Below, in pieces: positions 48,434 to 49,195 of a stretch of 64,000 nt of DNA (the stretch's first letter is position 1; each line of letters starts with the position of its first letter). The translations under genes and the position numbers were made by a program. The stretch is taken from sequence record OR842557; one strand, written 5' to 3'. Source of the DNA: Escherichia phage 04086. A model generated the notes under the pieces. That model was not told the origin of the DNA and ran no database searches. It was given only the letters and a program-made list of their open reading frames with translations.

Positions 48434-48846
48434 CAAGGTTGCCGCAAGGCATAGCCCCTTCCGAAAGGTTGGGGCTTTTTGGCATAATAAATAGATAAGT
48501 TAATTAACTTAGGAAATAATAATGAAAACTTACAATGAATTTTTGACCGAACAATCTAGTTCAGATGTAAAAGCCGCTGCGATTGCAGCAATTCAAGCAG
48601 GTAAATATTCTTACAAAGACGCCTCTGATGAAGAACGNNNAACAAGGTTGCCGCAAGGCATAGCCCCTTCCGAAAGGTTGGGGCTTTTTGGCATAATAAA
48701 TAGATAAGTTAATTAACTTAGGAAATAATAATGAAAACTTACAATGAATTTTTGACCGAACAATCTAGTTCAGATGTAAAAGCCGCTGCGATTGCAGCAA
48801 TTCAAGCAGGTAAATATTCTTACAAAGACGCCTCTGATGAAGAACG
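48434..48846. repeat. N-bounded direct duplication (NNN 48638-48640) covering terminator and start of IP-like gene; probable assembly artifact
   Basis: ~205 nt duplicated exactly either side of NNN; ORF 48522..48707 is the truncated first copy. Confidence 0.6.
48454..48480 (+). terminator. Intrinsic terminator (GCCCC-ttccgaaaggtt-GGGGC + T5)
   Basis: Variant of the terminator cassette at 5116 and 49800; ends the tRNA / stable RNA unit. Confidence 0.7.
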
Positions 48847-49195
48847 TTTCCGTTTTATTAAAGATTTTAAAGCCGAAGGTTTTACTAATGCCAATACTGT
48901 TAGCCGAGTTTTTAAAAGCCTAGCTGCATCAGGTGAATTGTTCCAGAAAGCTACAGGTAAAGCACCTGCTACAAAAGCGGACCCTAAAGCCTCTCAAGAA
49001 AAAAATATCGCCAAAGGAATTATTTCTAAGTATGAAGCAATTCTTAAAGAGCTTTTAGTAATCAAAACAGAAGGCCAGAAACTAGCACGAGCACATAGCT
49101 TCAAAGATAATCCGCATGCTCACGACTTAGAGTATGTTGAAGATATTCAGAAAATCATCAAAGACCGTATCTGGTCTGCTAAACAAATCAAATAA
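48731..49195 (+). CDS. Internal-protein-like protein with capsid targeting sequence
   Basis: N-terminus MKTYNEFLTE fits the CTS pattern (MKTY..F..E); 154 aa, Lys/Ala-rich. Confidence 0.55.
   Translation: MKTYNEFLTEQSSSDVKAAAIAAIQAGKYSYKDASDEERFRFIKDFKAEGFTNANTVSRVFKSLAASGELFQKATGKAPATKADPKASQEKNIAKGIISKYEAILKELLVIKTEGQKLARAHSFKDNPHAHDLEYVEDIQKIIKDRIWSAKQIK

Follow-up and report, generated by a model that had tools for sequence, protein, structure and literature searches.

Does the DNA downstream of the tRNA genes of Escherichia phage 04086 encode a further internal head protein and, if so, how would such a protein reach the head and what would it do? The window (the whole stretch of 64,000 nucleotides that was analysed, from record OR842557) belongs to a Dhakavirus, a JS98/QL01-like member of the Tevenvirinae (T-even phage), and its top DNA match is Escherichia phage UGJNEcP3 (99.2%). 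The first-pass annotation had proposed an extra internal protein gene here, encoding a Lys/Ala-rich protein of 154 residues with an N-terminal capsid targeting sequence (CTS). The ORF is confirmed as an ATG-initiated frame that starts with MKTYNEFLTE:

48731-49195, plus strand: candidate internal protein gene, ATG start, 154 residues, stop included in the coordinates
48731-48760, plus strand: CTS, codons 1-10 (MKTYNEFLTE), ending in an L-x-E (LTE) protease motif

No residue is more abundant than Lys and Ala (22 of each, 14.3% each). The computed pI is 9.36 for the full-length protein and 9.5 for residues 11-154 (16.0 kDa); T4 internal proteins are basic proteins. An identical protein sequence from Escherichia phage 04086 is deposited as WQZ01106.1. 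In an AlphaFold2 model (pLDDT 73), the protein is all-helical apart from its disordered parts, with the following predicted architecture:

Residues 1-10: CTS (disordered)
Residues 11-76: helical N-domain (helical at 13-67 in the model)
Residues 77-90: disordered Lys/Ala/Pro linker (77-88 in the model)
Residues 91-154: long helical hairpin, C-domain (85-151 in the model)

The record contains an anomaly that overlaps the 5′ end of the ORF:

48432-48640, no strand: artefactual duplicate and NNN join (exact 206 bp, 48432-48637 being identical to 48641-48846)

The duplicate yields a 61-residue, cut-off pseudo-copy of the protein (48522-48707). Both 206-bp copies map to one 205-bp stretch of UGJNEcP3, and a region of 1,501 bp in the window takes up 1,292 bp in relatives. 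Because the duplication is missing from relatives, and the copies are joined by NNN, we reject the 61-residue ORF at 48522 as a true paralogue and regard it as an assembly artefact, not a second gene. N-runs of the window (375-377, 2162, 45752, and 48638-48640) sit between duplicated sequence (197-bp exact; 190-bp at 94%; 98-bp, 45654-45751 and 45753-45850; and the 206-bp exact duplication) and look like unmerged contig overlaps. Such duplications make false cut-off ORFs, as with the 61-residue copy and a doubled 5′ end of 57B.

The overlap with the NNN-joined duplication raises the question of whether the full-length ORF is itself spurious or a product of the artefact. The ORF is intact in complete genomes that lack the duplication, and the protein matches PHROGs family phrog_2280 (E = 6e-53), listed there with 'unknown function'. 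By tblastn, this family is found in 511 phage records (Escherichia, Shigella, Yersinia, Salmonella, Citrobacter, and Klebsiella phages), in all of which it is annotated as 'hypothetical'; 737 records match the 1.5-kb region around the gene, so that about one-third of the related records are without it. Comparison with phage RB27 gives a dN/dS of 0.13 for the whole gene (N-domain, 0.19; C-domain, 0.023), indicating that the gene is under purifying selection, which is very strong in the C-domain. The intact ORF, its presence in those 511 records, the overall dN/dS and peptides of an orthologue detected by mass spectrometry (see below) together refute a spurious origin, to which we attach virtually no probability.

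Within coliphages, the C-domain is 91-95% identical and the N-domain 59-64%. The N-domain persists (~58% identity) in Yersinia (Tegunavirus) and Klebsiella phages, in which the C-terminal half is unrelated, and the homologue P0013 carries yet another C-terminus. The Lys/Ala/Pro-rich spacer is kept in all lineages of the family.

The resemblance of the N-terminus to the capsid targeting pattern, as the first-pass annotation had claimed, is borne out in detail. Seven of the ten residues are the same as in T4 IPII/IPIII (MKTYQEFIAE), and the I-to-L change is conservative; the T4 IPI N-terminus is MKTFKEF...ITE. Cleavage by gp21 follows the rule L/I-x-E. The LTE motif occupies residues 8-10, and FLTE (residues 7-10) is the same tetrapeptide as residues 60-63 of gp23 of the window, where the predicted gp21 site, at the position of T4 gp23 cleavage, reads GSFLTE/AEIGG. 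The P1′ residue after Glu10 is Gln; it is Ala or Ser in established and neighbouring internal proteins. A relaxed CTS pattern is matched by only four distinct ORFs among the 554 Met-started frames of at least 50 residues in the window, and the other three are all at the classical internal protein positions:

46301-46573, plus strand: Ip9-like CTS gene next to 57B, the classical ipI locus (phrog_7673 'internal head protein', E = 2e-56)
59319-59944, plus strand: a pair of CTS genes (59319-59678 and 59687-59944) adjoining denV and e, the classical ipIII/ipII position

The CTS resemblance is far beyond chance. The candidate gene lies beyond the tRNAs and apart from both of these sites, so its description as lying outside the canonical ipI and ipII/ipIII loci was correct.

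The machinery that a CTS would require is encoded in the window, as are gp23 and the gp20 portal:

14948-15583, minus strand: gp21 prohead protease, which would be expected to cleave off the CTS (Pfam Peptidase_S77, E = 3e-103)
14102-14917, minus strand: gp22 scaffolding core protein, the CTS destination (Pfam T4_CASP, E = 6e-90)

We consider it likely that the gene encodes a T4-type, CTS-loaded, gp21-processed internal head protein of an unrecognised family, for which we infer packaging, cleavage, and injection. The 10-residue CTS would target the protein to the scaffolding core that gp22 forms in the prohead, where gp21 would cut after Glu10 (F-L-T-E/Q). The basic, all-helical product of ~16 kDa would stay among the packaged DNA and be ejected into the host with it.

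Among the CTS genes, the likeness also holds at the DNA level (78% over 40 nt) and takes in the ribosome-binding site:

48720-48725, plus strand: ribosome-binding site AGGAAA, common to the other CTS genes (read from the sequence; a repeat family)

A similarity that spans the ribosome-binding site and the first ten codons is what a shuffled 5′ module would give. The protein could then be a late cytoplasmic accessory protein with a vestigial CTS-like N-terminus, the 5′ end and ribosome-binding site being kept as a recombination or translation-initiation module, with no meaningful loading into the head. The alleles of the family speak in both directions. RB27-type alleles read FLMTE and are without the canonical [LI]-x-E at position 10, as a vestige might be; tandem double sites (FLNE-AVLNE) are frequent in Tequatrovirus alleles. 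In distant homologues, the N-terminus reads MLKFNEFLAE (P0010), MLEYSEFLKE (Yersinia phage fHe-Yen9-01), MKFKEFLAE (Klebsiella phage vB_VIPKPNOM02), MKFKEFLIE (P0013), and MISFNEFVDGNLITE (P0017), and a CTS-like N-terminus with [LIV]-x-E is kept in P0010, P0011, P0013, P0017, and the Klebsiella phage orthologue. The pattern M-x-x-[YF]-x-E-F-[LIV]-x-E is thus retained in homologues beyond nucleotide alignability, which argues that the peptide, not the DNA, is what selection maintains. The tag is also kept in relatives whose bodies are ~35-55% identical or whose C-domain is different. Therefore, the N-terminal similarity is not coincidental, which the first-pass annotation had named as the outcome that would undo its proposal.

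Virion proteomes bear on the same choice, and the first-pass annotation had made its proposal depend on detection of the protein in virions. Yersinia phage fD1 (= phiD1) encodes an orthologue, g140 (67942-68415, 157 residues, 74.8% identical), which is marked 'PPAP' in Table S3 of the fD1 study, that is, identified by LC-MS/MS in ultracentrifuge-purified virions, and which passes the stricter threshold (PMC8309999). The same list marks 113 (stricter) to 137 (looser) of the 277 proteins of fD1, including DenV, NudE, and lysozyme (PMC8309999). With ~40-50% of fD1 proteins flagged, the list is unspecific; the virion check proposed in the first-pass annotation comes out positive for this orthologue, but the evidence is weak. 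Jiaodavirus phages provide the other data set. The phrog_2280 family is not found by tblastn in the Jiaodavirus phages ValerieMcCarty03/04. In the deep virion proteome of ValerieMcCarty04, IPII- and IPIII-type proteins are represented by 26-66 spectra, whereas a different CTS-like protein of the same locus as our candidate (VMC04_131, WKM80661; see below) has no peptides among those listed and the CTS protein of the ipI locus has none above noise among those listed. This counts in favour of a vestigial N-terminus and lowers our confidence only modestly, because it covers the listed peptides only and small Lys-rich proteins are poor tryptic targets. In the HY01 study, five gel bands only were identified.

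A late promoter and the orthologue above the stricter fD1 threshold count against the vestige. The following element lies 28 nt 5′ of the ATG:

48695-48702, plus strand: AATAAATA, which differs at one position from the T4 late promoter TATAAATA

UGJNEcP3 likewise has AATAAATA at this position; the mismatch, like the Gln at P1′, counts against the internal-protein reading. The canonical TATAAATA is present directly 3′ of a terminator hairpin, ~30-45 nt 5′ of the ATG, in RB27 (Tequatrovirus), QL01 (Dhakavirus), and Klebsiella phage vB_VIPKPNOM02. A search for sigma-70 sites gives none significant over shuffle expectation. A late promoter fits a head component. On balance, a late cytoplasmic protein with a vestigial tag is unlikely, and we retain the CTS-loaded internal protein as the preferred reading.

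The mature part of the protein matches none of the other internal proteins compared. In full-length BLASTP, the similarity to them is limited to the N-terminus: the CTS matches best, and for IPII-type proteins a weak similarity continues to around residue 43 (IPII, residues 1-43, E = 8e-4 against a very small database; phrog_7857, E = 7e-4). In a homology search of the mature part, as suggested in the first-pass annotation, residues 11-154 give no significant match (best E = 0.087) to T4 IPI/IPII/IPIII, Ip8, the three other CTS proteins of the window, or four Jiaodavirus CTS proteins. Similarity restricted to the N-terminus is the pattern described for internal protein families (PMC3012670). 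Searches of Pfam, NCBIfam, and PADLOC give nothing above noise, and a PDB profile search gives E-values of at least 0.69. A match to a PPR-like repeat protein (P0016, E = 8.5e-5, 6 repeats) is set aside as helical-hairpin or low-complexity similarity. The searches run, on sequence and on the predicted model, reveal no known protein or fold that is similar to the mature part.

The architecture is compatible with a second alternative, in which the protein is an accessory or assembly protein of the prohead core, either degraded by gp21 like gp22 or acting as a structural or DNA-condensing component of the head, and not an injected effector. A second L-x-E motif (LKE, residues 105-107) lies within the C-domain, the C-domain is extremely conserved (as its dN/dS indicates), and the basic Lys/Ala/Pro-rich linker, which is histone-H1-like, is present in all lineages. 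Against this, the gene is missing from T4 as well as from about one-third of related records (511 versus 737), and thus cannot be needed for assembly. In addition, the C-domain is replaced by unrelated ones in other genera, and all three characterised T4 internal proteins are anti-restriction effectors (PMC12373910). We consider a core protein improbable, slightly more so than a vestigial tag. In the preferred reading of an injected internal protein, the linker may additionally hold the protein on DNA.

How does such a gene come to lie here? It is located 660 nt downstream of tRNA-Met (47915-47991) and tRNA-Arg (47997-48071), past the homologues of rnaD and rnaC. In order, the region contains gene 3, gene 1, 57A, 57B (45768-46223), the Ip9-like CTS gene, ORFs like trna.4, trna.3, and trna.2, the two tRNA genes, the rnaD/rnaC homologues, a hairpin, AATAAATA, the candidate gene with its own terminator, a DUF7338 ORF, a second copy of the hairpin, e.8-like to e.6-like ORFs, e (58318-58806), denV (58869-59276), and the two further CTS genes. 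The rnaD/rnaC (species 2/species 1 stable RNA) homologues occupy 48072-48402, are 92% identical to T4 and have ~58 extra nucleotides after tRNA-Arg; an Rfam scan of 47800-49300 finds the two tRNAs only, rnaC and rnaD, for which Rfam has no family, being recognised through alignment to T4 instead. The number of tRNA genes is two in the window phage, eight in T4, and ten in RB27. The boundaries of the insertion are as follows:

48661-48689, plus strand: rnaC terminator hairpin and T-run, the upstream direct-repeat copy that bounds the cassette
49198-49222, plus strand: the candidate gene's own intrinsic-terminator-like hairpin AAAGCCCCAGATGGGGCTTT and T-run, directly 3′ of the stop codon (palindrome scored on the minus strand)
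49798-49826, plus strand: downstream copy (93%) of the rnaC-terminator repeat, which ends a two-gene insertion relative to T4

The 92% alignment to the T4 rnaC region stops directly after the 48661-48689 hairpin. The two-gene insertion consists of the candidate gene and the DUF7338 ORF (49240-49794; Pfam E = 6e-63, phrog_2143). The latter has a hydrophobic N-terminus, is co-inserted with the candidate gene between the terminator repeats and is missing from this locus in RB27 and T4. Since the candidate gene has its own downstream terminator, it is a self-contained, putatively late cassette, and it would be transcribed late from a TATAAATA-type promoter between terminators.

In T4, nothing lies between the rnaC terminator and e.8; a single terminator copy is followed by the exact sequence that is found after the downstream copy in RB27. 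In RB27, the rnaC terminator occurs twice as a direct repeat, with the gene alone in between. The upstream junction of the window is the same as in RB27, and its 93% hairpin copy follows the DUF7338 ORF. The locus is thus empty in T4, holds the orthologue in RB27 and the candidate gene plus the DUF7338 ORF in the window, and in a Jiaodavirus holds the unrelated CTS-like VMC04_131. Insertion or deletion through recombination of repeated stem-loops would be expected to leave this geometry, in line with the PeSL model, in which regulatory stem-loops recombine (Arbiol et al. 2010, PMC2839356), and the cassette may be gained and lost between the directly repeated rnaC-terminator hairpins. Like PeSL cassettes, it consists of a single ORF between repeated stem-loops, and the element is present just once in the relative that is without the ORF; in contrast to them, what is repeated is the rnaC terminator, with a late-type promoter behind it in place of a sigma-70-type early promoter. 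With this geometry and the Jiaodavirus allele, the junction between tRNA/rnaC and e.8 looks like a third polymorphic internal protein locus.

VMC04_131 itself (L007, Klebsiella phage ValerieMcCarty04, 11202-11786, minus strand) is a protein of 194 residues, annotated as hypothetical, that starts with MKFKDFLTE. It has an Ala/Pro/Lys spacer and a body unrelated to our candidate, and lies at the homologous locus behind a terminator and TATAAATA. A chimeric allele is also found: in the metagenomic protein P0009 (94 residues), a protein like the window ORF 46827-47228, which is at the trna.3 position, is fused to the last 31 residues of the candidate protein, pointing to a natural deletion of ~2 kb in some phage with loss of the tRNAs, rnaC/D, and most of the gene.

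The ipI locus is the closest known counterpart. At both loci, close relatives differ in whether a gene is present and in which allele stands there, and the hypervariable ipI locus (Ip4-Ip10, Bas37_0260) likewise contains unrelated bodies that share the CTS only and are flanked by conserved regulatory stem-loops. The two differ in position and signals: ipI lies between 57B and trna.4 with PeSL-like early-promoter stem-loops, whereas the candidate locus lies beyond the tRNAs with a terminator and a late promoter. Among Ip4-Ip10, the direct comparison covered Ip8 and the Ip9-like protein, and neither matches the candidate protein. The ipI locus of the window holds one CTS gene (Ip9-like), and that of the 99%-identical UGJNEcP3 and of QL01 holds two (Ip8 and Ip9); the difference (window 46301-46573 versus L001 3318-3813) is a presence/absence polymorphism between near-identical genomes. 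A PeSL-like element, composed of GTTTACA, a stem-loop overlapping GATACTAT, and then TCAAAACAA, occurs in three copies (46243-46280, 46585-46622, and 49860-49897). Two of these bracket the Ip9-like CTS gene and the third is 5′ of the e.8-like ORF; the same sort of element lies upstream of T4 ipI.

What would the protein do in the host? T4 Ip1, Ip2, and Ip3 are injected, and each inhibits one GmrSD-type type IV restriction enzyme (PMC12373910). Because these three inhibit distinct enzymes, any further CTS-tagged protein is a candidate first-strike anti-defence factor. By analogy, the likeliest job of the candidate protein would be to neutralise an immediate-early host defence, and an anti-defence role is plausible. 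The proposal rests on analogy because sequence and fold are uninformative; the searches run found no sequence or structural link between the candidate protein and any known anti-defence protein. The C-domain dN/dS of 0.023 is not the signature of an arms-race effector and counts against the anti-defence reading. For ip4-10, no targets were found in the tests reported, and the supplement of that study gives no sign of the phrog_2280 family among the proteins tested (PMC12373910). A protein of the ipI locus of Bas37 is a candidate inhibitor of K-12 type IV restriction systems (HIDEN-SEQ preprint, 10.1101/2025.11.20.689424). IPIII acts in the cytoplasm without its CTS.

Compared with T4 IPII/IPIII, the candidate protein has a nearly identical CTS with L/I-x-E ending at residue 10, is small and basic, and is the product of a non-essential gene. 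Unlike them, it has an unrelated mature part, predicted as a two-domain helical protein with a disordered linker, and its gene lies between tRNA/rnaC and e.8, whereas theirs adjoin denV and e; Ip2 and Ip3 act as inhibitors of specific GmrSD enzymes. The Dar proteins of phage P1 and the ejection proteins of P22 are also packaged in the head and delivered with the DNA, and some are anti-restriction factors, but they have no kinship with the candidate protein in sequence, tag or fold and are loaded by other mechanisms.

Taken jointly, the locus and the family permit a broader and more tentative reading, which we regard as possible but would not favour. The junction would be an unrecognised third internal protein locus of T-even-type phages that holds interchangeable late-promoter CTS-cargo cassettes, namely phrog_2280 with swappable C-domains and unrelated bodies such as VMC04_131, and phrog_2280 would be either an injected effector against a non-GmrSD defence or an H1-like, DNA-bound escort. 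If either form of this reading is true, phrog_2280 would be the most widespread uncharacterised injected protein of coliphages (>500 genomes).

That T-even phages have more than three internal proteins, which the first-pass annotation had taken as an implication of the gene, is already textbook knowledge (PMC3012670, PMC12373910). What is novel here is a widespread, conserved, and unannotated family, together with its locus and its cassette structure; the kind of protein has been known since 1994 and is the subject of current research. Ip4-Ip10 of the polymorphic ipI locus are said to have been described in that year by Repoila et al., from whose work the internal-protein concept reportedly dates, and that concept is unchanged by our finding. 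Recognition of phrog_2280 would improve the annotation of more than 500 therapeutic-type coliphages and Shigella, Yersinia, and Klebsiella phages, and would add a third locus to examine for host-range differences among T-even phages. Protein delivery with engineered T4 heads would also gain a further CTS variant and a scaffold that naturally has two domains.

Two further groups of ORFs in the window share motifs. Tandem small ORFs occupy 52235-53480. The four translated from 52235-53245 (65-96 residues) all end in W-[VF]-[ST]-S-S-x-x-C (WVSSSAMC, WVSSSSEC, WVSSSYEC, and WFTSSMSC), and a fifth (53106-53480) ends similarly in WYPSSC; by their shared endings, they are a paralogous family with a conserved C-terminal motif. 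Three ORFs that sit between conserved genes (43347-44012, 57594-58346, and 61951-62685) have a common N-terminal motif, (I/L)Y..L...(T)E.HHI(L/I)P...GG.D...NLV.LT..EH, which resembles that of HNH/Mob-type homing endonucleases.
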